Shown piece by piece: positions 1 to 16,890 of a DNA stretch of 41,628 bases. The notes under the pieces were generated by a model that was not told where the DNA came from, did no database searches, and saw only the letters and a list, made by a program, of their open reading frames with translations. Location of the stretch: IMG/VR virus record IMGVR_UViG_3300019468_000010. One strand, 5' to 3'. The stretch is from a virus. The position numbers were made by a program, and so were the translations under genes. Positions within the stretch are counted from its first letter, which is position 1. Each line of letters opens with the position of its first letter.

Positions 1-127
1 GTATAGGTGAACAGTTCCTTGCCTATGAATAAGTTGTACCACTTGTTAAGTTCAGCCCAAGTCTTAGACTTTAACTGTGTATCAGTATTAGCGGTAACAA
101 CTCCCCTTGTATTCTCATGTGTAGCAA
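1..127. repeat. Terminal direct repeat (left copy). It is identical to 41502-41628 and is an assembly overlap of a circular or circularly permuted molecule.
   Basis: Base-by-base comparison of the first and last 127 nt shows identity. The repeat lies inside the terL reading frame and is in phase. Confidence 0.95.
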
Positions 128-398
128 TAGCAAATAGAATTAAAATCGATGAAAACGCTGACTTACCAATACCATGACCTGATGCAACTGCAATTTGAAT
201 TGCTTTCGCCAATGATTTGCCCTTGCGTAGTTCTTCACCTATTTTCTTGAAAGTCTTTACTTGCCATTCATCAGGGCCGTCAAAGTTTTCAAGCGGTGTT
301 CCTTTTTCTCCCCAAGGAAAAGAAAAGTATGCAAAGCCTAATGGATCATGCGTAAACGACCCCAACGCATCAATCAGTTGTGCCTTGTTGTACTTCAT
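1..398 (-). CDS. terL: Terminase large subunit, N-terminal part. The ATG is at 398-396, and the frame runs off the window start and continues at 41501.
   Basis: Manual translation gives MKYNKAQLIDALGSFTHDPLGF...AVASGHGIGKSAFSS, with Walker A GHGIGKS. The frame is open to base 1 and in phase with the ORF at 40445-41628. The joined gene is 1455 nt (484 aa). Confidence 0.9.
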   Translation of the reverse strand, partial: MKYNKAQLIDALGSFTHDPLGFAYFSFPWGEKGTPLENFDGPDEWQVKTFKKIGEELRKGKSLAKAIQIAVASGHGIGKSAFSSILILFAIATHENTRGVVTANTDTQLKSKTWAELNKWYNLFIGKELFTY

Positions 399-822
399 CT
401 GATTTCACCCTTGCTTGCTTCATTCGGTCAGATATATCAATCTCAATTTCTGCATCAAGTTTCACTTTGTCAGTAAATAGCATGTGCCGTTTGCCTAACA
501 ACTCGGCTGCTTTGGTTCTATCTGCAATTGAGGCATCCAAACCAAATGCATCTTTTTCTTCGCCATTCATTACCTTAGTTAAGTACTCCAATACTTCATC
601 AGCAGTTGCGATTGTGTTTTTACTACGCTCGTTCATGACTGCATCTATATATTGTCGAACGTTAACTTTTGTCAACAACTGACTACCTTTACTTCTTGCC
701 GTCTTTTCTGAATATCCAGCCGTAATTGCACTTTGTGTTCCGTTGGTGGTCTTAACGTATTCATCAGCAAATATGCGTTCTTTCTTAGTTAGTTTTTGTG
801 CTAATTCATTTATACTCGCCAA
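370..822 (-). CDS. terS: Terminase small subunit (Terminase_2-like)
   Basis: The N-terminus KKERIFADEYVKTTNGTQSAITAGYSEKTARSKGSQLL is the typical HTH motif of small terminases. The gene overlaps the terL start by 29 nt. Confidence 0.85.
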   Translation of the reverse strand: MASINELAQKLTKKERIFADEYVKTTNGTQSAITAGYSEKTARSKGSQLLTKVNVRQYIDAVMNERSKNTIATADEVLEYLTKVMNGEEKDAFGLDASIADRTKAAELLGKRHMLFTDKVKLDAEIEIDISDRMKQARVKSDEVQQGTTD

Positions 823-824
823 TG

Positions 825-1172
825 TTACTCACCACCTTTATATGTTCTAACTAAAAATAGCAGTACTTCATGTTGTTTAGTACTGCTATACTCACTTTCT
901 TTCTTATAGAGTTGTCCTTGCTTAAAGGTCTTGCCCTTTTTGTACTTATGAGGAAATGTCAGTTTGTATTCTTCCTCTGTGTACATTCGATTAACGATAT
1001 ACACCTTGCAAGGCTTATCGTATTTACTCCATGATTGCCTTACATCGACTACATACCGCCTACCATTCATTTGTAATGCTTTAAGCAATTTCTTTATTGT
1101 AGGTTGATAATTCACATCAAGCACCACACAATACCGACTATAATCAACACACCGCACACAATGGCTAGGCAA
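825..1172 (-). CDS. Hypothetical protein. The start is uncertain; a GTG at 1115 overlapping the upstream stop is plausible.
   Basis: ORF in the operon directly upstream of terS. I recognise no motif. Confidence 0.5.
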   Translation of the reverse strand: MPSHCVRCVDYSRYCVVLDVNYQPTIKKLLKALQMNGRRYVVDVRQSWSKYDKPCKVYIVNRMYTEEEYKLTFPHKYKKGKTFKQGQLYKKESEYSSTKQHEVLLFLVRTYKGGE

Positions 1173-1312
1173 TCAATAATACTTAACACGTTATCTTCAC
1201 GATGTTCAAACGCATATTTTGCTTTCGCTTGTAGGTCTTTGTTATCTAAATCTTGTGCAGCTTTTTTGAATAACGCTCTATCCTTAATAAATTGTTTAAT
1301 TGCTTTAATCAT
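1112..1312 (-). CDS. Small C-terminally anchored membrane protein
   Basis: 66 aa with a hydrophobic C-terminus IIDCLAIVCGVLIIVGIVWCL. It overlaps its neighbours by 4 nt. Confidence 0.55.
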   Translation of the reverse strand: MIKAIKQFIKDRALFKKAAQDLDNKDLQAKAKYAFEHREDNVLSIIDCLAIVCGVLIIVGIVWCLM

Positions 1313-1503
1313 TTAAGCACTTCACCACCTTTCCGCTTTAGCTTTCCATTAGATCTAACACACAAACCACATTTACTTTTTCTTGCATTCCCCTGTGTGA
1401 TGTATGTTTGGCACAAGCCGTCATATTCAATGACATTAGCCGTGCATTTTCCTTTCTTGTTGTTCAAGCATTTACTCTTACAACACAATATATCAGTCAT
1501 CAT
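1309..1503 (-). CDS. Cys-rich DUF1540-like small protein
   Basis: GGGGAG RBS before the ATGATG at 1503/1500. The pattern ILCCKSKCLNNKKGKCTANVIEYDGLCQTYI resembles DUF1540 cysteine spacing. Confidence 0.5.
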   Translation of the reverse strand: MMTDILCCKSKCLNNKKGKCTANVIEYDGLCQTYITQGNARKSKCGLCVRSNGKLKRKGGEVLK

Positions 1504-2076
1504 TTCTCCCCTTTTGATAACTTTATACAAAAAATGAGATATATCGCCGTGGATATACCTCATTATGTGATAGTTTTATTCATTTTTATTGTATATTCAA
1601 AACCAAAGTTATATAGTTAGCTATTCGCCAACACGAGTATATGAATTGTAATCATGGTTAGCTCACTCTGTCTAACTCTCGCACAATACTCGGTTCCCAA
1701 CGGAACATATAGCTTTAGTTTTCAATATGCAATTGCACTCTCTAAACTAATACCGCCAGTTGTTTGTAGTATGTAACATTTTTTCGCTTAAGGTTTTATC
1801 TCATGAAACGTATAGTTGGTTGTTATTGCAATATTGGAAAGGATAATATGCGGTATTAGTTTACAAAATGCAATATAAGAGGTGCGGTGCAGTTAGAAAA
1901 TAATATAGATTGTAATGACTTAGAAACAATACTCGTTGATTTTCAAATACAAAATATAAAACCGCACCTCAATTGCTATTTAGTTTTTAGAATTGCTCAT
2001 TGGCAACTCTTACACCCTATATTCTACTATATGTTTTTAGGTGTTTATACTGACATTTACTGACATTTCATGACAT
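1504..2076. other. Long non-coding region (about 570 bp) with dense palindromes and repeats. It is a candidate late promoter, packaging site or ncRNA locus.
   Basis: No ORF longer than about 17 codons with an RBS on either strand. It contains 10-bp palindromes TGCAATTGCA (1728-1737) and TATTGCAATA (1824-1833), and a 10-bp inverted repeat GAGGTGCGGT/ACCGCACCTC (1879-1888 / 1961-1970). Confidence 0.6.
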
Positions 2077-2090
2077 TTACTGACATTTCA
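2051..2090. repeat. Four exact-period 10-bp tandem repeats TGACATTT(AC/CA)
   Basis: TGACATTT starts at 2051, 2061, 2071 and 2081. The array spans the stop codon of the regulator gene at 2077. Confidence 0.9.
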
Positions 2091-2535
2091 ACTTGCCTAT
2101 TTCAATCAATGCTTTTTCTTTATACCTCATAGCCTGTCTTTCATTGAATTGGTTCTCAAAAACCGAATGCGCTTGTTTGGCTGACATTCCAAGCAGGTAT
2201 TCATAACGTAACATTGTACCGCCTATTTCTTCGCTTAGACTATTGATCGTGTTGATTACATCGCACTTGTACTCGCTCAATTCATCAATCCGTCTGCGTT
2301 GTTCTTTTTCCGTATCAATAAACCTTGCTACGCTATTTTCTAACCCACATGGAACACCGCCACCGCTCACTCTATCCTTGGAATAATCGATTGCACTAAT
2401 CGATGTGATGTTACATCGTAGTTGCTCTATTTCTTTTGCAATCGATTTTATTTGCTCATCAACTGTCTTTACAGGCTCAAGGTATTTTCTAGCACTACTG
2501 ATTAATCTCTTTTCACTCTTTGTCGGTTCATTCAA
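2077..2535 (-). CDS. Putative late transcriptional activator (sigma-70 region-4-like, DUF1492/RinA/ArpU class). TTG start.
   Basis: The pattern ...SAIDYSKDRVSGGG...coiled segment...LRYEYLLGMSAKQAHSVF...RQAMRYKEKALIEIGK matches the layout of Firmicute phage late activators. It sits upstream of the packaging module. Confidence 0.5.
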   Translation of the reverse strand: MNEPTKSEKRLISSARKYLEPVKTVDEQIKSIAKEIEQLRCNITSISAIDYSKDRVSGGGVPCGLENSVARFIDTEKEQRRRIDELSEYKCDVINTINSLSEEIGGTMLRYEYLLGMSAKQAHSVFENQFNERQAMRYKEKALIEIGKLKCQ

Positions 2536-2538
2536 ATA

Positions 2539-2718
2539 TTACTCACCACCCAACATAACACCAGCACCAAAGATAATTAACACAATACCAATTATCGCCT
2601 GTATGTATAACATTCGCATGCATCCCTCTTCAAACGTATCAAAGGCATCGCTTAAAATCGCTGCTAAAAAAGGTGAAACACCTAATACCATTCCAATTGT
2701 AATTAAATTTTCAGCCAT
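2539..2718 (-). CDS. Small two-TM membrane protein (59 aa, below the ORF-track cutoff)
   Basis: Manual translation gives MAENLITIGMVLGVSPFLAAILSD...IIGIVLIIFGAGVMLGGE. AGAGGT RBS, and the ORF is tightly packed between its neighbours. Confidence 0.5.
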   Translation of the reverse strand: MAENLITIGMVLGVSPFLAAILSDAFDTFEEGCMRMLYIQAIIGIVLIIFGAGVMLGGE

Positions 2719-2722
2719 GTAT

Positions 2723-3118
2723 TTATACCTCTGCTAGCTTTGCATATTTCCATGCAATCGGAGAATTTTTTATTACATTACTCCAAGATGTTCTTCCAAG
2801 TTGCCACGCATATACTTCTCCATCTTCATACATTGCAAAATATCTACACTTCCATACTTCTTCATTACTCATTCTGACAAAAATTGGTGTATCAACTTCT
2901 ACTTTCGACCAATCAACAATACCTAGATATTCTGCAATATCAATTTGTTGGTTTTCTTCTGTGAAGCACGTACTTCTTATATCAACTCTATTCAACCACT
3001 GTGAAATACGTTCACAATTCTTATAAAAGAATACTATTCCGTTTTCTATTTCCGCTTTTCTGCATCCTAGATCATACATGCGTTTAAATAACTCGTCTGT
3101 AAATTGTTTATCATTCAT
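2723..3118 (-). CDS. Hypothetical protein
   Basis: AAGGAG RBS before the ATG at 3118. No motif recognised. Confidence 0.6.
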   Translation of the reverse strand: MNDKQFTDELFKRMYDLGCRKAEIENGIVFFYKNCERISQWLNRVDIRSTCFTEENQQIDIAEYLGIVDWSKVEVDTPIFVRMSNEEVWKCRYFAMYEDGEVYAWQLGRTSWSNVIKNSPIAWKYAKLAEV

Positions 3119-3335
3119 ATTCCCATTCTCCTTTATCTTCATTCCATTTGTACCACTTCACGTTTTTTACAAACATTCCGTTTTCTTGTAAATCACCTTG
3201 CATTTCACCGATACAAAATTCATCATCGCCACTTTCACAAGCTAATTGCTTTAGAAATTCAAACGCACTTTCCCATGTATCATGTGGTGCTATGTAATAA
3301 TCTGAATGTTCTGTATATCCGCTATAACCTAGCAT
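3111..3335 (-). CDS. Hypothetical acidic protein
   Basis: AAGAGGA RBS before the ATG at 3335. It overlaps the upstream stop. Confidence 0.55.
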   Translation of the reverse strand: MLGYSGYTEHSDYYIAPHDTWESAFEFLKQLACESGDDEFCIGEMQGDLQENGMFVKNVKWYKWNEDKGEWEYE

Positions 3336-3634
3336 TTGTTGTCCTCTTGCTCTTTTTTCCATTGCATATACGCATTGCTCCATTCTTTATCACGCTCATT
3401 TTCAACAAAATTCATATATTCAAATAATGCTCTTTTCCGTACTGACCTTGTATATTCTTCTAATGACATTCGTCCTTCTCTCAAATCGAACATACTTATC
3501 ATTACTGCAATGTTTGCACCACCTATACAATATTCAGCGAAAATACCATCTGGCCTTCTTCTTATAATAGGCTTATATATATCGTTCCCATGCACTATTG
3601 TTAATGCACTTGATAATAGTTCAAAGTCAATCAT
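3329..3634 (-). CDS. Hypothetical protein
   Basis: AAGAGGT RBS 6 nt before the ATG at 3634. Confidence 0.6.
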   Translation of the reverse strand: MIDFELLSSALTIVHGNDIYKPIIRRRPDGIFAEYCIGGANIAVMISMFDLREGRMSLEEYTRSVRKRALFEYMNFVENERDKEWSNAYMQWKKEQEDNKC

Positions 3635-3651
3635 AGTTACCTCTTATGATA

Positions 3652-3671
3652 AGGCGGATATTTCACCGCCT
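3652..3671 (-). terminator. GC-rich hairpin AGGCGG-N8-CCGCCT, 4 nt after the stop of the adhesin-linked gene. Possible weak terminator or RNA stabiliser.
   Basis: Inverted repeat read directly. There is no U-tract on the minus strand, so it is not a canonical intrinsic terminator. Confidence 0.3.
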
Positions 3672-3675
3672 ATAC

Positions 3676-3885
3676 CTATCCAACCAATACTTTAATCAAA
3701 ATCACAAACCCAAATATCAAAACTACTATCGATACACCCATGATCGCATTAAAAAATAACTCTTGTGCAAATTGGATTGCCTTTCTATTATTTTCTGCAT
3801 TCATATTAGCCATTACCTTGAAATCTTTTGTTTTTGTTTGTAGCTTATCTACATCACCTGTATATTTCCCTATTGGTGTACACAT
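3676..3885 (-). CDS. Small tail-anchored membrane protein immediately downstream of the adhesin gene
   Basis: C-terminal TM segment IMGVSIVVLIFGFVILIKVLV. Its ATG abuts the adhesin stop (TAAATG). Confidence 0.5.
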   Translation of the reverse strand: MCTPIGKYTGDVDKLQTKTKDFKVMANMNAENNRKAIQFAQELFFNAIMGVSIVVLIFGFVILIKVLVG

Positions 3886-5163
3886 TTATTTACCAGCTTT
3901 CAATTCTTTAACTTCCGCTACTAATTGATTTACCAACTCTTCAAGTTGTTTGATTTTACCTTTATGGTTAGTTTCGTATTCACTACCTTTACCAAGTCTA
4001 AAGGATACACCTGCGTTAATCATTTTGTTGGCCAATGTAGCACCCAAGCTAAACATTACATGCTCAGTTGGTGCATAGAACATACCGAGTGCCACATCAT
4101 TTGCGTTTTTGTAGTGGCCGTAGCCAACTGCAAATGTTAATTTATCATCAGAATTATAGCCTAAATAGTGTAGCGCACTTAGTGCAGCAGTAGATGCACC
4201 AGCTTTTGCTACTTCATGCATCACGTTTGAGATTTGACCTACTGTATTACGTTCTAAATCTGTAATACGTGTTTCGTGGTTATTAATTCTATCCGTATTA
4301 TTCAAAATGGCTTGGCTATTTTGCCCTACACGCTCGTTTGTAGCGGTTAAAGAGTTATTAATCGTTGTAAATCCGTTATCCACCTTAGAGGTCAAATTAG
4401 AGATATTCGTAGTATTTCGTGTAACTCGTTTGTCTAAACAGTTCACATCTTTTTGAAGTTTGGCAATGTGTGTTCCGTTTGTTTCAATTTCGTCATATGC
4501 TGCGAACAACTGACTGCCATTAACTGCATCTAAACTGCTAGGGTCTACACGGCCCGCACTTACATTGTGCAGTTGTCGGTTGTAGTTACTAATTCCACTG
4601 TATGTATCACTTTTCTTACTACCAAAGGATACTACGCTATTAGGACTTTCACCTGCGAACACATGAGTTACCCCATTTAATACAACTTGTCGAACACCTA
4701 CAGGGTTATCCGTTTGACTGTTTGTGCCAATCGCTACGGAATTTTGAACAGGTGCTGATGCATTATTGCCAATGACTACCGCATCAATACCACGCACTAC
4801 ACTATGTGTGCCTACTACCACTGCACCTTGATTGTCTACAGTATTGTTAGCACCTAATACAGTTTGTTCTTTATTGTTGCCTACATAATTGTTGTACCCA
4901 ATTACACTTGCTTGGTCAGCTTCAATTGTTCCATTGCCACCACCGATTACAACGCTATCATTTCCTGTTACTTTATTATCACGGCCAATTGCAATTGTAT
5001 TTGTGCCTGTAACTACTGTATTTGCCCCTACAGCTACAGAATTGTAACCGCTTACTACTGGTGCTTGTGTATTAGGCTCTACTGGCCCTGTTACAACACC
5101 GCTTGCTAATACATTACCGCCAATTGTACCCATAATCATTGTTGCTAATACTAATTTATTCAT
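3886..5163 (-). CDS. Trimeric autotransporter adhesin (YadA/Hag-like, type Vc) with a C-terminal coiled-coil extension
   Basis: Signal peptide MNKLVLATMIMGTIGGNVLASG. Head repeats (NSVAVGANTVVTG, NTIAIGRDNKVTG, NSVAIGTNSQT). Neck motif NRQLHNVSAGRVDPSSLDAVNGSQLFA. N/T-rich coiled stalk. YadA anchor AGASTAALSALHY...FAVGYGHYKNANDVALGMFY...GVSFRLG. Confidence 0.9.
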   Translation of the reverse strand: MNKLVLATMIMGTIGGNVLASGVVTGPVEPNTQAPVVSGYNSVAVGANTVVTGTNTIAIGRDNKVTGNDSVVIGGGNGTIEADQASVIGYNNYVGNNKEQTVLGANNTVDNQGAVVVGTHSVVRGIDAVVIGNNASAPVQNSVAIGTNSQTDNPVGVRQVVLNGVTHVFAGESPNSVVSFGSKKSDTYSGISNYNRQLHNVSAGRVDPSSLDAVNGSQLFAAYDEIETNGTHIAKLQKDVNCLDKRVTRNTTNISNLTSKVDNGFTTINNSLTATNERVGQNSQAILNNTDRINNHETRITDLERNTVGQISNVMHEVAKAGASTAALSALHYLGYNSDDKLTFAVGYGHYKNANDVALGMFYAPTEHVMFSLGATLANKMINAGVSFRLGKGSEYETNHKGKIKQLEELVNQLVAEVKELKAGK

Positions 5164-5181
5164 ATTTGTTTTCTCCTTTTA

Positions 5182-5219
5182 CTGTCTTTCTACTGTCTTT
5201 TTCTGTCTATCTACTGTCT
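5182..5219. promoter_or_regulatory. Four helically phased CTGTCT (TACTGTCTTT) direct repeats immediately upstream of the adhesin RBS
   Basis: CTGTCT starts at 5182, 5193, 5203 and 5214 (spacing 11, 10 and 11 bp). The repeats lie in the 64-bp gap between the dUTPase stop and the adhesin start. Confidence 0.6.
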
Positions 5220-5227
5220 TTTTTTGC

Positions 5228-5647
5228 CTATTTTCCTGTACTACCGAACCCATTACTACCTCTTTCTGTTTCATACAATCGGTCTGTTTCTTCAACATCA
5301 GGCAATAATATTGGAATAATTAACAATTGTGCTATACGTTCGCCACGCTTAATCGTGTAATTCTTGCATGATACATTGTCATATACCGCACATATCTCCC
5401 CTGTATAATCGCTATCAATTACCCCCATGCTATTTGCCATGCGTAGCGGTGTCTTATGCATGCTACTACGAGGAACCAATAGCCCAACATGAAAGTCAGG
5501 TATCTGTACCGCTATCCCTAGCGGTATTTTTTTCTGTGTATCTGCTGGTACTGTAATATCGAACGGACAATATAGATCTAAACCAGCACTCCATTTACTA
5601 CCTCGTGTAGGCAACTCAACATATTCATTTAACCTCTTTACTAACAT
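5228..5647 (-). CDS. dut: dUTP diphosphatase (trimeric dUTPase)
   Basis: Canonical motifs AGLDL, VPRSS, GVIDSDYTGE, GERIAQL and RGSNGFGSTG. Confidence 0.95.
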   Translation of the reverse strand: MLVKRLNEYVELPTRGSKWSAGLDLYCPFDITVPADTQKKIPLGIAVQIPDFHVGLLVPRSSMHKTPLRMANSMGVIDSDYTGEICAVYDNVSCKNYTIKRGERIAQLLIIPILLPDVEETDRLYETERGSNGFGSTGK

Positions 5648-5930
5648 TTATCCAATCACCCCATATTTTCGCTCTTGTTACTTGATTGCTTGTTAAGTTC
5701 AATTCTTTCATGATTTGTCTGTTATTAAAACCTTGTTTACACAATGCAATAACATCATCAATCAATTTGAATTCATCTTGTATAGTTCTTTTCTTAGGCA
5801 ATCCACTACCTTTTCCACCTATAACCTTAATTGCCTCATTTGTATCAAGGTTTCCCCATACTACCGATGCTAGTGCTAACCAGTTTTTGCAGTTATACGG
5901 AATTCCATAAACCGATGTATTAACTGCCAT
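5625..5930 (-). CDS. Putative HTH DNA-binding protein
   Basis: GGAGTGAGGA RBS before the ATG at 5930. The C-terminal segment CKQGFNNRQIMKELNLTSNQV looks like an HTH. Confidence 0.45.
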   Translation of the reverse strand: MAVNTSVYGIPYNCKNWLALASVVWGNLDTNEAIKVIGGKGSGLPKKRTIQDEFKLIDDVIALCKQGFNNRQIMKELNLTSNQVTRAKIWGDWINVSKEVK

Positions 5931-6294
5931 GTTCCTCACTCCATTCACTTTCTCTATAGATGCGGAAGAAATCATCAGCACTCATTACTACTAACCAAGG
6001 CTTATTGCTTTTTTTCCATGCTACTATTGGTATATCTCCATTATCTGCTTGAATTGCATCATGTTCAGCCTGTTCATATGCTTTACGCACATTTAGGCTT
6101 TCCACGAATTTCACTTCTTGATGTATGTTAGGTAATCCAATGCAATCCGCTGCATCACCTGTATTACCGCAATATTGTGCAGTTCTACGTACTTTATCAA
6201 AACCATGCAACCTACATACACCTCGCCACATTAATTCCCCTCTAACACCTTTTCGTTTACTATTTACTTTCTTTTTCTTCTTTTCTACTGGCAA
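5920..6294 (-). CDS. PD-(D/E)xK Holliday-junction-resolvase-like nuclease
   Basis: The pattern SKRKGVRGELMW...HGF...R...GDAADCIG...IHQEVKF fits the KG-x-x-E...D...E-x-K layout of Hjc/RecU-like resolvases. Confidence 0.55.
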   Translation of the reverse strand: MPVEKKKKKVNSKRKGVRGELMWRGVCRLHGFDKVRRTAQYCGNTGDAADCIGLPNIHQEVKFVESLNVRKAYEQAEHDAIQADNGDIPIVAWKKSNKPWLVVMSADDFFRIYRESEWSEEHGS

Positions 6295-12898: not shown

Positions 12899-13194
12899 TA
12901 CAAATCCTTTCCAACTATCACTAGCATTTGGCTGGTGATTTTTTTGATTTCACTTTTCAAACGATTGTTTTCTTTTTCCAATCGTTCCACTTCGTTTTTT
13001 AACTTTCTGTAACCAATAGCCGAGTATTCGCTTTCAACTCCTGCTAGTGCTTCAACCTCTTTTTTACTAAATCTCACACCGCTTACATTCGGTAGTTGTT
13101 TTAGCTTGCCTTTATTTCTTAGGTCGTATACTGCAGTTAGTGAAATTTGAAATAGTTCCGCTACTTGGTTAGCCGTGTATACTAGGCTCTCCAT
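12898..13194 (-). CDS. Excisionase/MerR-type HTH protein with a C-terminal coiled coil
   Basis: YTANQVAELFQISLTAVYDLRNKGKL...VRFSKKEVEAL is HTH_17-like and is followed by a heptad-rich tail. Confidence 0.5.
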   Translation of the reverse strand: MESLVYTANQVAELFQISLTAVYDLRNKGKLKQLPNVSGVRFSKKEVEALAGVESEYSAIGYRKLKNEVERLEKENNRLKSEIKKITSQMLVIVGKDL

Positions 13195-13421
13195 CGCTTT
13201 TCATTCCTTGCGTGTAAATCAGCAGTTCTAGCTAACTTTACCCAAGATAGAATAATTTTCTTATTCCATCTGGATTTGTTTCTTAACGGCCATTTTTTCT
13301 TGATGAGTTTCCGCCAGTATTGGCCATATTCATCATTCCGACCAGCCCATCCAAATCTTGTGGATGTTTGTCCGTATCGTTTGTTGGCTAGTTTTAGATC
13401 CGCTTGATTTTGTACTAGCAT
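13182..13421 (-). CDS. Small very basic, Trp-rich hypothetical protein
   Basis: GAGGTG RBS 7 nt before the ATG at 13421. Confidence 0.55.
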   Translation of the reverse strand: MLVQNQADLKLANKRYGQTSTRFGWAGRNDEYGQYWRKLIKKKWPLRNKSRWNKKIILSWVKLARTADLHARNEKRWRA

Positions 13422-13439
13422 CTAATCACCTCTTCAAAA

Positions 13440-13456
13440 TTACATTTAAACTGTAA
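13440..13456. promoter_or_regulatory. Operator-like site O3 (TTACATTTAAACTGTAA) between the cro-like gene and the next gene
   Basis: It matches O1 at 15 of 17 positions. Confidence 0.5.
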
Positions 13457-13461
13457 CTCTT

Positions 13462-13674
13462 TTACAAAAAAATAATCTTGTGGTACGGAACCTCATAAAG
13501 TTTTTCAATCTTTTTTAGCACATGTACATCTGGGGATGATTTTCCTTTTTCATAATTCATCAACGTATATTCGCTAATACCTAGCATTTCCGCTGCTTTC
13601 TTTTGTGTCAAACCCTTATTTACTCGTGCTGCTTTTAATGTAATTCCATCTTGTACAAAGATTTGTTGGTTCAA
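13462..13674 (-). CDS. Cro-like XRE-family HTH regulator (TTG start)
   Basis: LKAARVNKGLTQKKAAEMLGISEYTLMNYEKGKSSP. It is divergent from the repressor gene, with a GAGGTG RBS. Confidence 0.8.
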   Translation of the reverse strand: MNQQIFVQDGITLKAARVNKGLTQKKAAEMLGISEYTLMNYEKGKSSPDVHVLKKIEKLYEVPYHKIIFL

Positions 13675-13706
13675 TTTATCACCTCACTTTCCCTTTCGTT
13701 GATTGT

Positions 13707-13735
13707 ATTGTATTACAGTTTAACTGTAATGTCAA
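13707..13735 (-). promoter_or_regulatory. Early lytic promoter (PR-like): TTGACA - 17 bp - TACAAT
   Basis: Read on the minus strand. The -35 is at 13735-13730 and the -10 at 13712-13707, and the whole spacer is operator O1. Confidence 0.7.
13712..13730. promoter_or_regulatory. Operator O1: perfect 9-bp inverted repeat ATTACAGTT-T-AACTGTAAT
   Basis: Read directly. It fills the PR spacer. Confidence 0.75.
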
Positions 13736-13749
13736 CAGTTTTTCTGTAA
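13733..13749. promoter_or_regulatory. Operator O2 (CAACAGTTTTTCTGTAA). Core ACAG-N5-CTGT, centred 20 bp from O1.
   Basis: It matches O1 at 13 of 17 positions and overlaps the PR -35. Confidence 0.55.
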
Positions 13750-13765
13750 ATTCCTAAAAAAATAT

Positions 13766-13794
13766 TTGATTTTTTTGCAGTTTAAATATATTAT
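13766..13794 (+). promoter_or_regulatory. Repressor promoter (PRM-like): TTGATT - 17 bp - TATTAT
   Basis: Read directly. The spacer contains an operator half-site, TTGCAGTTTAA. Confidence 0.5.
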
Positions 13795-13838
13795 ATAAAT
13801 AACAACAAAAATTTTAAAATTATAATGAGGTGAATATA

Positions 13839-14748: not shown

Positions 14749-15804
14749 ATGCAATTCAATACAACAATTCGGAGAAAGGATAAAGGCTATCAAATTATAG
14801 TTAGCTATAAGGACGGCTATAAGTGGAAACAGAAATCTAAACAGGGTTTCGCAACACAAAGAGATGCTAAACTTTATGGCCAAGAAATAGTAGACAATCT
14901 AAAAAAGACTATCACCAGTCCACTTGATGATAGTCTAAAAGATATAACGCTTATTGAGTTTTACAAGATATATACAGATGAAAACAAAGCAAATGTATAT
15001 TCTACGTTCAAAGCATATGACAATGCATTTCAGAAATTCAACATGCTATTCAATATGAAAGTAAAAGATATTTCTGAAATACAAATTCGGAAAGTAATTA
15101 ATGACTTACAACAATCAATAGCCAGTAAGAATATGTGCATAACGATTATAACAAAGGTATTCGCCTATGCAGTATCACCATATAGGATTATTAATAGTAG
15201 TCCATGTAAGAACATTAAACGACTACATAAAACACAAACAACTAAAATCAACGCTATAAATGAAGATGATGTAACACGCCTGTTAACATCGTTAAAAGGC
15301 CATAACTACAAATACTATATCGTGTGTTCCATTGCTGCTTATACTGGTATGCGGTATGGCGAAATATTAGGCCTTACATGGGATGATATAGATTTAGATA
15401 ACGCTATTATTGATGTGAATAAACAATTCGCTTATAGCGGTGAAAGTACATATATGATCCGCAATCTAAAGACAAAAAACAGTTACAGAAAAATACCTAT
15501 ACCGCCAATACTGATTGATATATTGCTTGAATACAAAAATACCACCAGCGGATTATATCTATTCAACAATCCAACTGGCGGTACTGGTGCAGTATCGGTA
15601 ATGATAAAACGATATTTACCAAATACTTCTATACATGATTTAAGACATACCTATGCTACAAGGTTATTAGCAAATGGTGTTGATATAAAAACAGTAGCAT
15701 CCTTATTAGGTGATACTGTTGATACAGTCATCAACACATACATTCACTATACCGATGAAATGAGATTAAAGGCACATGATAGTGTGTCTAAAATTTTCGG
15801 CTAG
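14749..15804 (+). CDS. int: Tyrosine integrase
   Basis: TGMRYGEILGLTWDDID (catalytic Arg box) and HDLRHTYATRLLANGVDIKTVASLLGD...TYIHY (H-x-x-R ... Y). Confidence 0.95.
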   Translation: MQFNTTIRRKDKGYQIIVSYKDGYKWKQKSKQGFATQRDAKLYGQEIVDNLKKTITSPLDDSLKDITLIEFYKIYTDENKANVYSTFKAYDNAFQKFNMLFNMKVKDISEIQIRKVINDLQQSIASKNMCITIITKVFAYAVSPYRIINSSPCKNIKRLHKTQTTKINAINEDDVTRLLTSLKGHNYKYYIVCSIAAYTGMRYGEILGLTWDDIDLDNAIIDVNKQFAYSGESTYMIRNLKTKNSYRKIPIPPILIDILLEYKNTTSGLYLFNNPTGGTGAVSVMIKRYLPNTSIHDLRHTYATRLLANGVDIKTVASLLGDTVDTVINTYIHYTDEMRLKAHDSVSKIFG

Positions 15805-16023
15805 AATTTTTGACGAATTTATTGACGATTACCAAATAAACCTTGTAATTACTGGTGTTTTCAACCTATAAAACATATCAATATATTATACTCCAATTAA
15901 CTATGGATTATCAATTATTTCACAATTATTATTATACTTGCAATTAATCTTTGTTGCGGTAAATATTACTTCTCATATTTTACCACATTTTACAATTAGA
16001 ATTTGACGAATATTTGACGAAAT
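15805..16023. other. attP-like region with two pairs of TTGACGA(A/T)(T/A) direct repeats (arm-type site candidates)
   Basis: TTGACGAAT at 15810-15818, TTGACGATT at 15822-15830, TTGACGAAT at 16003-16011 and TTGACGAAA at 16014-16022. All are in the same orientation and flank about 170 bp of AT-rich DNA next to int. Confidence 0.55.
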
Positions 16024-16054
16024 AAAAAAAGAGGGTAGCAATTAAGCTACCCTC
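16024..16054 (-). terminator. Rho-independent terminator (GAGGGTAGC - 6 nt loop - GCTACCCTC followed by U7 on the minus strand)
   Basis: Perfect 9-bp stem read directly. It lies 9 nt downstream of the stop at 16063. Confidence 0.85.
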
Positions 16055-16062
16055 TAATACGT

Positions 16063-16227
16063 TTAGTCTAATTCAATTAATCGGTGTAGTTCGCCGTTTA
16101 CAAACCACATTTCACACGTTACATTATCGCCGTCTTTTAGAGTGGCCATATATAACCCCTCTTTGTTTGGTTGAATATCTTCTGCGAATTGATGTGTTTT
16201 TCCTTCAAATGTAAATACTTGTGCCAT
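16063..16227 (-). CDS. Small hypothetical protein (54 aa) forming a moron with its own promoter and terminator
   Basis: ATG at 16227 preceded by AAAGGA. Translation: MAQVFTFEGKTHQFAEDIQPNKEGLYMATLKDGDNVTCEMWFVNGELHRLIELD. The longer track ORF begins at a TTG that is actually the promoter -35. Confidence 0.55.
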   Translation of the reverse strand: MAQVFTFEGKTHQFAEDIQPNKEGLYMATLKDGDNVTCEMWFVNGELHRLIELD

Positions 16228-16243
16228 TGTGTTATTCCTTTCA

Positions 16244-16272
16244 GTTATAAAGTAATACTTTCCAACTGTCAA
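16244..16272 (-). promoter_or_regulatory. Sigma-70-type promoter TTGACA - 17 bp - TATAAC, with an overlapping palindrome CAACTGT-N6-ACAGTTG (16263-16282)
   Basis: Read on the minus strand. The -35 is at 16272-16267 and the -10 at 16249-16244. The -10 ends only 16 nt before the ATG, so the leader would be very short. Confidence 0.45.
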
Positions 16273-16317
16273 TTAACAGTTGATTGTTGCAATCCGTGCA
16301 ACTCGGAGATAATTAGA

Positions 16318-16890
16318 TCACCATTCCTTTACTGTGTAAAGTGCGCTAGCGCCCTCTAAATGTTGTCCATTGAAATGTGTTAACACTTCAAATTTACCTG
16401 CTTGATAGCCTATAGTTTCATAGGCTATATTATCTATCAAAGTAACACCAGCTTTTATCTTGTGTCCTTTGTTTAGATTGATTTTGTACACATCGACTTT
16501 TTGTTCATCGGTGTTAGCAACTACTGCGGTTCTATCAGATTTTTCAGTAACAGCTTTAGGTACATTAGGGTTGCTATGTACAATATCCTGTTTTACCTTT
16601 TCAGCTGCGACTTCAACTGTAGGTGCTTGCGTGTAATACGTTGCTATTGGTTGAGTTCTTTCCTTTTTAGAAATGACTTCCTGTGCTTCCTTTTCAGTAA
16701 CATGAATTGCCTTTGACAATTCTTGAGGTGATTTAGCCTGCTCTTGTGTAACAATAACAGGCTTTTCTAATTCTTTTTGTTTGTGATGATATATTACTAC
16801 ACCTACAATAGCGATAAAAACGCATAGGACAATCGCTACGGCTATTTTGTAGTGTTCCTTGATAGTTTGTACCAACTTACTAATTAACAT
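16318..16890 (-). CDS. N-terminally membrane-anchored protein at the end of the lysis cassette (spanin analogue or other envelope factor)
   Basis: Single TM segment IAVAIVLCVFIAIVGVVIY, then a charged helical linker and a beta-rich C-terminal domain. It lies immediately after the endolysin. Confidence 0.4.
   Translation of the reverse strand: MLISKLVQTIKEHYKIAVAIVLCVFIAIVGVVIYHHKQKELEKPVIVTQEQAKSPQELSKAIHVTEKEAQEVISKKERTQPIATYYTQAPTVEVAAEKVKQDIVHSNPNVPKAVTEKSDRTAVVANTDEQKVDVYKINLNKGHKIKAGVTLIDNIAYETIGYQAGKFEVLTHFNGQHLEGASALYTVKEW

Follow-up and report, generated by a model that had tools for sequence, protein, structure and literature searches.

The IMG/VR virus record IMGVR_UViG_3300019468_000010, all 41,628 nucleotides (nt) of which are called the window in this text, represents a genome of about 41.6 kb that is complete and circularly permuted and carries an integrase, repressor-like genes and a podovirus-type portal. 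Every gene in its first 5 kb lies on the minus strand. The subject here is a stretch of about 570 bp, located between the gene for a transcriptional regulator and the first gene of the packaging operon. An initial annotation made from the sequence had singled out positions 1504 to 2076 as a non-coding island with palindromes and a long-range inverted repeat, and had listed an activator-dependent late promoter, a packaging site, a structured RNA and a regulatory leader among its candidate roles. Comparison with related phages turns this "empty" gap into elements that can be annotated, namely a candidate late promoter, a long structured leader and a terminator-like hairpin. In the order of transcription, the genes at the locus are as follows.

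2535..2077, minus strand: late transcriptional regulator gene, 152 aa, TTG start; phrog_36 "transcriptional regulator", E = 5.8e-11
2076..1501, minus strand: the gap
1500..1309 (ATG at 1500 or 1503), minus strand: first late gene, encoding a Cys-rich protein of 63-64 aa, phrog_33034; Shine-Dalgarno sequence GGGGAG at 1511-1506
Two small genes, minus strand
822..370, minus strand: terS (Pfam Terminase_2), followed by the start of terL

The regulator is the final gene of the early cluster, on the same strand as the late operon and directly upstream of the packaging genes, which is the placement by which regulators of the Ltr/Alt kind are recognized. Veillonella tobetsuensis ATCC BAA-2400 holds a prophage with a 99% identical regulator and with 93% identity to the middle of the leader (window 2000..1610), and relatives are found in other Veillonella genomes.

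Conservation of the gap

The interval between the regulator and the first late gene was extracted from about 125 related loci and then from 21 genomic loci, and the IMG/VR relatives yielded 81 distinct versions of the gap. The interval measures 400-850 nt among relatives, nearly all of them free of open reading frames (ORFs), and 137 nt in three relatives. The absence of a credible ORF from the window's gap was borne out: the longest ORFs, of 40-58 aa, are broken or shifted in relatives and match nothing in Pfam or PHROG, and no ORF is shared across the 81 versions, in which length and frame differ. The gap had also been described as exceptional in a tightly packed genome. It is indeed among the largest, but similar ORF-free gaps occur at about 13194-13830 and 15804-16318. 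A blastn search of the region against GenBank phages gave no match.

An all-against-all comparison of the middle portion of the gap separated the relatives into two unrelated types of cassette, with about 40 distinct sequences of type A, which resemble the window, and about 41 of type B. Type B sequences are 72-95% identical to one another, and each cassette is conserved at 72-99% across dozens of phages. The two types share only the first 60-90 nt or so and the last 110 nt or so. Some relatives have no cassette at all; the promoter boxes, the -10 hexamer, the 5' hairpin and the terminator described below are common to all. Each cassette is present in at most one copy per genome, type A in 3-4 and type B in 4 of 82 Veillonella species genomes.

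A candidate late promoter

The upstream end of the gap contains the following elements.

2088..2049, minus strand: four tandem 10-bp boxes, AAATGTCAGT, with cores at 2085-2080, 2075-2070, 2065-2060 and 2055-2050 (Tandem Repeats Finder: period 10, 4.1 copies)
2026..2021, minus strand: -10 hexamer TAGAAT of the putative late promoter, at a fixed offset from the boxes
2011..2015 (about 2013), minus strand: putative transcription start, GGTGTAAG, placed from the position of the -10

The array of boxes straddles the stop codon of the regulator gene. The right boundary first drawn for the non-coding island, at 2076, cuts through the array. The statement that the gap has no recognizable promoter must be withdrawn, since a conserved -10 lies at a fixed distance from four phased boxes. 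Relatives have three to five box cores per phage, spaced by 10 nt in 196 of 200 intervals, and the final TGTC core begins exactly 29 nt ahead of the -10 in 63 of 66 distinct promoter regions, with spacer sequences that differ by cassette type. Type A promoters have TAGAAT as the hexamer and type B promoters TATAAT; a -35 element is absent, and the last box is centered near -40. The association of promoter and cassette is also seen from the other direction: a conserved 20-mer from type B occurs at 45 IMG/VR loci, and boxes and a -10 lie just upstream at all 42 that could be evaluated.

The boxes are the putative binding sites of the regulator. Their sequence varies with the regulator allele (TGTCAG, TGTCCG, or CGACGG in L120, the most distant relative), a co-variation that is consistent with binding. 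At the putative start, a TGTA(A/G) motif recurs downstream of the -10 in phages 80alpha and phi13 and in five other loci (L120, L134, L136, L137 and L139), and the mapped start TSS23 of phi13 (PMC13123087) falls on a TGTRR motif. No second -10-like element near the start, of the type that causes sigma-dependent pausing, was recognized.

The regulator belongs to one named family by sequence, phrog_36; searches against Pfam, NCBIfam and PDB profiles gave nothing meaningful. In particular, it had no match at E <= 0.1 to the Pfam models DUF1492, Sigma70_r4, RinA and ArpU, nor any match to the Q-family Pfam models. An AlphaFold2 model, with a predicted local distance difference test score (pLDDT) of 87, shows a helical hairpin at the N terminus and, at the C terminus, a helix-turn-helix like that of sigma-70 region 4. 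When this model was compared with BFVD, its fold matched DUF1492, "Sigma-70 region 4" and ECF-like phage proteins with E values down to 6e-7; a fold search of the PDB returned generic helical bundles only. The isoelectric point is 7.6 for the whole protein, which is not strongly basic, and 8.9 for the C-terminal 50 aa. The protein is likely to be Ltr-superfamily-like, with a helix-turn-helix of the sigma-region-4 type, as judged by predicted fold and not by sequence family.

A predicted structured leader RNA in two versions

Transcription from the putative start would produce an untranslated leader of about 510 nt in the window and up to about 790 nt in type B relatives. Its predicted helices in the window are listed here.

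2010..1989, minus strand: 5'-terminal stem-loop AGAGUUGC-CAAUGA-GCAAUUCU, 8 bp, conserved in type A and type B
1970..1879, minus strand: helix GAGGUGCGGU/ACCGCACCUC, which is the 10-bp inverted repeat, closing an A+U-rich domain of 72 nt; near-invariant across 40 type A sequences, where the exceptions are a single U·G and a single UA variant
1874-1851 with 1756-1732, minus strand: 24-bp helix (helix 4) closing a domain of about 95 nt, with the TGCAAT/ATTGCA motifs as its arms
1728..1593, minus strand: domain closed by AUAUUGAAAACUAAAGC/ACUUUGGUUUUGAAUAU, with hairpins at 1706-1693 (GTTCC), about 1676-1657, 1655-1641 and 1632-1616

Most of the repeats that had drawn attention to the gap are accounted for by these helices. 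The inverted repeat GAGGTGCGGT/ACCGCACCTC is perfect at 10 of 10 positions, pairing 1879-1888 with 1961-1970 around 72 nt, and the GTTCC-CAAC-GGAAC hairpin was found at 1693-1706. The reported ATTGCA/TGCAAT palindromes could be recovered in part, as TGCAATTGCA at 1728-1737, ATTGCAAT at 1825-1832 and TGCAAT at 1869-1874; the copies placed near 1971 and 1991 are AATTGC, a 5/6 match and not the palindrome itself. ATTGCA matches 5 times in the 573 bp, where the density in the window as a whole, 69 per 41.6 kb, would predict about 1. The direct repeat TTAGAAA(A/C)-AATA proved to be a short A+T-rich match within a loop, with nothing to set it above chance.

The folding of the single sequence is more stable than that of dinucleotide shuffles on either strand (z about -5.5 for the whole stretch); because the two strands score alike, a single-sequence fold cannot assign the strand, but alignments can. 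The consensus energy computed with RNAalifold was -82 kcal/mol for the sense versus -47 for the antisense strand in type A, and -84 versus -60 kcal/mol in type B. Relative to column-shuffled alignments, the consensus fold has z = -12.3 for type A and -14.0 for type B. In type A, 99.1% of 2347 cells (one base pair in one sequence) form standard pairs, and 10 pairs are changed on both sides, compared with 1.9 in shuffles (0 of 500 reach 10) and 0-3 when the partners are slid. In type B, 108 pairs are 99.4% paired, with 105 compensatory cells as against 30.6 in shuffles (maximum 49), and 442 G·U cells would be A·C mismatches on the opposite strand. The alignments show conserved sense-strand structure in both cassette types, and they identify the inverted repeat, the TGCAAT motifs and the GTTCC hairpin as helices of a predicted sense-strand RNA.

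Individual helices illustrate the pattern. The helix GAGGUGCGGU/ACCGCACCUC can be extended by GCAAU/AUUGC (1975-1971 with 1874-1870). Helix 4 is paired in 99.9% of cells, with several invariant U·G pairs and an AU-to-GC change in 4 sequences. Within the domain at 1728..1593, helix 7 varies as GC/GU/AU and CG/UG/AU, and the hairpin GTTCC..GGAAC becomes GTTCT..AGAAC in L013 and L029. Some type A relatives have an extra closed domain of about 130 nt. A long-range pairing of 8 bp between the first bases of the transcript and the terminator's U-run, proposed by RNAalifold, was judged too weak, as it includes four wobble pairs. In one record, the domain closed by AAAAC/GUUUU (L122:2945-3092, window 1733-1588) is present as its reverse complement, an inversion between the helix arms; the orientation of the sequence of this domain is evidently dispensable, at least in that record.

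The 5' stem-loop is common to both types. Type B has the form GUUGCC-ACUAA-GCGAC, and the comparison includes a G·U pair and AU-to-GC compensatory changes. Stem-loops at the 5' terminus are known to stabilize transcripts in ermC, aprE, the SP82 stabilizer and the ompA 5' untranslated region. The hairpin described here likewise would lie within a few nt of the putative 5' end, is stable, and is conserved between otherwise unrelated leaders, and by analogy it probably stabilizes the late transcript against decay that depends on the 5' end.

Neither cassette matches an Rfam or tRNA model. An Rfam scan of window positions 1-6000 and eight type A or B loci (E <= 1) gave just a chance-level lncRNA match in the window, at E = 0.6, and ARAGORN, run on the window and on 11 related loci, detected neither tRNA nor tmRNA.

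A putative terminator and the common 3' block

The strongest single element of the gap had gone unmentioned in the initial annotation. It lies within a block shared by both cassette types.

1613..1501, minus strand: 3' block common to both types, 80-99% identical across 68 distinct sequences
1563-1552 with 1545-1534 (loop 1551-1546, U-run 1534-1529), minus strand: element resembling an intrinsic terminator, with a 12-bp stem, a 6-nt loop and U6

The hairpin has an energy of -13.9 kcal/mol and ends about 30 nt ahead of the first late start codon. Its stem undergoes compensatory AU/GC and GU/GC changes in relatives, the G·U pairs being confined to one strand, and the U-run retains at least 5 of 7 U residues in nearly all 68 variants. 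The whole palindrome including the loop is flipped in L048 and L058, and also in L034, L054, L055, L079 and L111, such that blastn aligns the equivalent of window 1563-1534 on the minus strand; the flipped forms retain both the hairpin and the subsequent U-run. Within the block, a G-poor, A-rich tract is followed by two G-N-ATAAA-NN-TATCA motifs, 53 nt apart and flanking the terminator, and then by the ribosome-binding site (RBS). An ORF of 84 aa from an ATG at 1563 on the minus strand was rejected as spurious; its first 20 codons span the terminator and the U-run, and relatives show 1-nt indels in the T-run.

Terminators were located in other loci with an energy-based scan. Of 15 diverse Ltr-type loci (from Veillonella, Clostridium, Caloramator, Oscillospiraceae and Staphylococcus phage 80alpha), all 15 have a sense terminator downstream of the boxes and -10, against a background of 0.14 per kb in upstream early DNA. 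The short-gap relative L120 has a strong terminator of its own in the equivalent relative place.

Parallels with known late control regions

The layout of the Veillonella region is familiar from phages controlled by Ltr regulators, a set that comprises RinA, ArpU, LtrA/sigma70_r4, LtrB/DUF1492 and LtrC (Quiles-Puchalt et al. 2013, PMC3753634; Ferrer et al. 2011, PMC3152322; phi13 Ltr 2026, PMC13123087). In those phages as here, the regulator is the last early gene, repeats at or just past its stop codon precede a -10, and a terminator precedes terS; box specificity tracks the regulator's C-terminal portion, and the sequence from the repeat block to terS is exchangeable between phages. The repeats directly past the regulator gene are both required for specific activation and enough to confer it, and terminator function has been demonstrated in staphylococcal and enterococcal phages (PMC3753634). 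In phi13, the repeats span -107 to -42 and a TATA box spans -15 to -5 relative to the mapped start (PMC13123087), and a hairpin and U-run lie between that start and the first late gene. The Alt repeats of TP901-1 are located at -76 to -32, as cited in PMC3152322.

The similarity extends to sequence in 80alpha (L126:2222-2407), whose RinA boxes TTGGCAGTAAA and GTGGCAGT, of the CAGTAAA type, and ACCTAAAA spacer motif resemble the Veillonella boxes ATGTCAGTAAA and spacer of the window. By our reading, the published 59-nt RinA block of 80alpha contains boxes, a -10-like TATTAT/TATGAT and a TGTAG motif, and a strong terminator follows it. The Veillonella system differs in its host, a diderm of the Negativicutes, in its podovirus-like virion module, and in a regulator that matches no Ltr Pfam model by sequence and is assigned by predicted fold only. 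It also differs in the leader, which is about 75-140 nt in 80alpha and phi13, and in possessing large covarying RNA helices in two non-homologous versions.

The closest counterpart in size is TP901-1, whose non-coding gap between alt and terS (L149:1987-2562; AF304433 12986-13561) is 576 nt long. It too has repeats and a TGATAT-type -10 past alt, and a terminator-like hairpin with a U-run before the RBS of terS. The cargo between them is different: ARAGORN detects a tRNA-Lys(UUU), which scores 55 bits with the Rfam tRNA model, and there is a second tRNA-like element, neither of them annotated in the record, whereas the Veillonella cassettes are not tRNA-like and match no Rfam family.

There is a broader resemblance to the lambda Q/pR'/6S RNA/tR' arrangement, in which the regulator gene is directly upstream of the late promoter and its DNA site lies at that promoter, an intrinsic terminator separates the promoter from the late genes, and a discrete leader RNA is formed when read-through does not occur. 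Stx phages are known to carry cargo, namely tRNAs and stx, in the stretch that separates the late promoter from the late genes. The Veillonella region departs from lambda in the sigma-region-4-like predicted fold of the regulator, in the location of the boxes upstream of -35 rather than between -35 and -10, and in having no recognized sigma-dependent pause element.

Interpretation and alternative explanations

We favor the view, with a probability of roughly two in three, that the gap serves the late operon (packaging, head, tail and lysis genes) as control region and 5' leader and is read on the minus strand. In this model, the Ltr-like regulator would bind the four helically phased boxes that overlap its own stop codon and, from the box near -40, would recruit the host RNA polymerase to a promoter with a good -10 (TAGAAT) and no -35. 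Transcription from about 2013 would then yield the untranslated leader, with a stem-loop at its extreme 5' end that probably shields the RNA from 5'-end-dependent decay, and would proceed through several long helices to the intrinsic terminator and U-run just before the first late gene. The terminator would halt read-through from the early operon, with the late genes silent until the regulator fires the promoter. Late transcripts would have to cross the same terminator, either because it is leaky in the face of a very strong promoter or because polymerase from this promoter is resistant to termination. The middle of the leader, some 400-650 nt, is best read from the alignments as a swappable cargo position for structured RNA, occupied by one of two unrelated, selectively maintained versions, where TP901-1 has a tRNA. 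Both the activator-dependent late promoter and the regulatory leader or structured RNA that had been listed as candidate roles are supported by the comparative evidence and by the published behavior of Ltr/Alt systems (PMC3753634, PMC13123087). The late-promoter layout is a known one, described in phages of Staphylococcus, Enterococcus, Streptococcus and Lactococcus and here extended to prophages of Veillonella, a genus that is common in the human mouth and gut; the oversized structured RNA leader in two versions is new. If the model is correct, few phage sequences would be transcribed at as high a level late in infection as the cassette RNAs, and the late leader emerges as a position for structured-RNA cargo, filled by a tRNA in TP901-1 and by two unrelated covarying RNAs here.

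The position of the promoter relative to the terminator raises a further question. In every system compared, the box-adjacent promoter is upstream of an intrinsic terminator, including phi13, where the start is mapped, and systems whose terminator was shown to block foreign read-through; the literature that we found does not address this arrangement. The question can be sharpened to a choice between terminator read-through conferred by the regulator and a terminator that is simply leaky. Since the terminator blocks read-through from Pcad when the regulator is absent (PMC3753634) and the promoter lies upstream of it, promoter-specific read-through is a serious possibility. Ltr-type regulators (RinA, ArpU, LtrB/C, Alt and the Veillonella protein) may load onto polymerase at the box-adjacent promoter and make it resist the leader terminator, a logic like that of lambda Q on a sigma-region-4 fold; transcripts that did terminate would build up as an abundant leader RNA, which in the Veillonella phages would have expanded into two alternative cargo RNAs of 400-650 nt with functions of their own. 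This extension of the model is tentative, and we consider it somewhat unlikely as formulated. A literature search found no proposal of promoter-specific read-through and no report of antitermination by an Ltr protein. If true, the proposal would also explain an old puzzle, the dependence of RinA on sequences that lie over 155 bp upstream of the 5' end mapped for terS.

Several observations weigh against the late-leader model. Domains of the leader are missing in L027 and in L058 and L059 (the latter two lack 1728..1593), and one is inverted in L122; since natural variants delete or invert domains, parts of the structure must be dispensable. The covariation in type A is modest, with many helices invariant and with some of the cells that changed on both sides coming from the one sequence with the inverted segment (L122). 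The match between box sequence and regulator allele is not independent evidence for binding, because the boxes overlap the regulator gene and linkage explains the match. Furthermore, when the late mRNA of phi11/80alpha was mapped by rapid amplification of cDNA ends (RACE), its 5' end fell downstream of the terminator, 23 nt ahead of terS (PMC3152322), a result that favors a second, proximal promoter. The conserved TTG-N-ATAAA-NN-TATCA past the U-run could be such a promoter, and a -10-like hexamer also precedes the stem; both are kept in the 68 distinct sequences.

These last points are the core of an alternative in which the early operon ends at the terminator, with the folded RNA as its untranslated 3' tail, and the true late promoter is downstream of or overlaps that terminator (its -10 being either CATAAT, directly next to the stem at 1570-1565, or TATAAA, past the U-run at 1527-1522), activated from boxes about 500 bp away. 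Read-through from the early genes would equally give sense RNA, and therefore the structural evidence does not discriminate between the two explanations. The requirement of RinA for sequences more than 155 bp upstream, remarked on by the authors of that study (PMC3152322), also fits activation from a distance. The geometry of the region argues the other way. Among relatives, the distance from the boxes to a downstream promoter would be unphased and would take values between about 110 and 800 nt, while the distance to the upstream -10 is fixed to the nucleotide, and relatives of the L120 type have no candidate -10 past their terminator. In phi13, the mapped start adjoins the repeats and a fragment from -200 to +50 suffices for activity (PMC13123087). 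Chimeras of the 59-nt 80alpha block with a foreign enterococcal intergenic region are still responsive to RinA (PMC3753634), and that block, as we read it, already contains a -10 and TGTAG. On balance, an early-operon tail with a proximal late promoter appears unlikely.

A different proposal is that the cassettes are stand-alone noncoding RNAs that act in trans, for example as decoys or sponges against host RNA-targeting defenses or RNases, freed by termination at 1529 and processing, with the two types being alleles matched to different hosts. It would account for the maintenance of two unrelated cassettes, each with a conserved covarying structure; the structured cargo at the same position in TP901-1 is a real tRNA-Lys, and the strongest phage promoter would, with termination at the leader terminator, give rise to a discrete RNA about 480-760 nt long. 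It accords poorly with the deletion or inversion of cassette domains in natural variants, with short-leader relatives that manage without a cassette, and with the lack of any Rfam match or tRNA similarity. We regard this proposal as improbable, and it is not needed to explain the data.

Packaging sites are frequently found upstream of terS, as with pacL/pacC/pacR of SPP1, cosB of lambda and the cos regions of lactococcal phages. The 3' block (1613..1501) might similarly be or contain a pac or cos site bound as DNA by the small terminase, a possibility that is compatible with the late-leader model. The block sits just upstream of the packaging genes and is kept in all relatives with this terminase module, and its two G-N-ATAAA-NN-TATCA direct repeats, 53 bp or five helical turns apart, flank a palindrome much as phased repeats do in known sites, with several (A/T)TATC motifs nearby. 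The palindrome, in contrast, behaves as an RNA terminator: it varies as an RNA would, with one-strand G·U pairs and compensatory changes, and it is followed by a U-run, as are the terminators of unrelated Ltr phages. Phages of the L120 type lack the block despite a 73% identical small terminase, and in conservation the block does not exceed the late coding DNA next to it (both about 80-90%). Several metagenomic contigs, among them L050, L106 and L025, begin or end inside the gap (at the equivalents of window 1643, 1618 and 1869), mostly at the junction of cassette and 3' block. This is a mosaic junction, where assemblers break, and such ends are more likely to reflect assembly breakage than genome termini. 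A packaging site in the 3' block is rated as quite improbable.

Finally, a decayed gene or neutral spacer is extremely doubtful even though the middle of the gap is mosaic, replaceable and in some relatives reduced to a 137-nt interval, since the plus-strand ORF of 58 aa (1887-2063) has no family match and is broken in relatives, the 81 versions share no ORF remnant, each cassette is conserved across dozens of phages at the identity given above, and pairing is kept in 99% of cells with compensatory changes and consensus folding far beyond shuffled alignments.

Other features of the window

Phased repeats also occur outside the gap. Four repeats of the AGACAGTA type, at 5176-5231 on the minus strand, reach up to the RBS of a YadA-like adhesin gene, and no -10 fits between the last repeat and the RBS. 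They were considered as a second Ltr site and rejected; the repeat unit differs from the late boxes and there is no space for a promoter.

A sigma-70-like site at 1674..1645 was considered as an internal promoter and not adopted, since its -35 is not conserved between type A variants, although GATTACAAT is. The same part of the cassette contains an 18-nt stretch, CATGATTACAATTCATAT (1640-1660, minus strand), that includes the TACAAT of the sigma-70-like site and is near-invariant even in the most divergent type A relatives, L128, L132 and L133.

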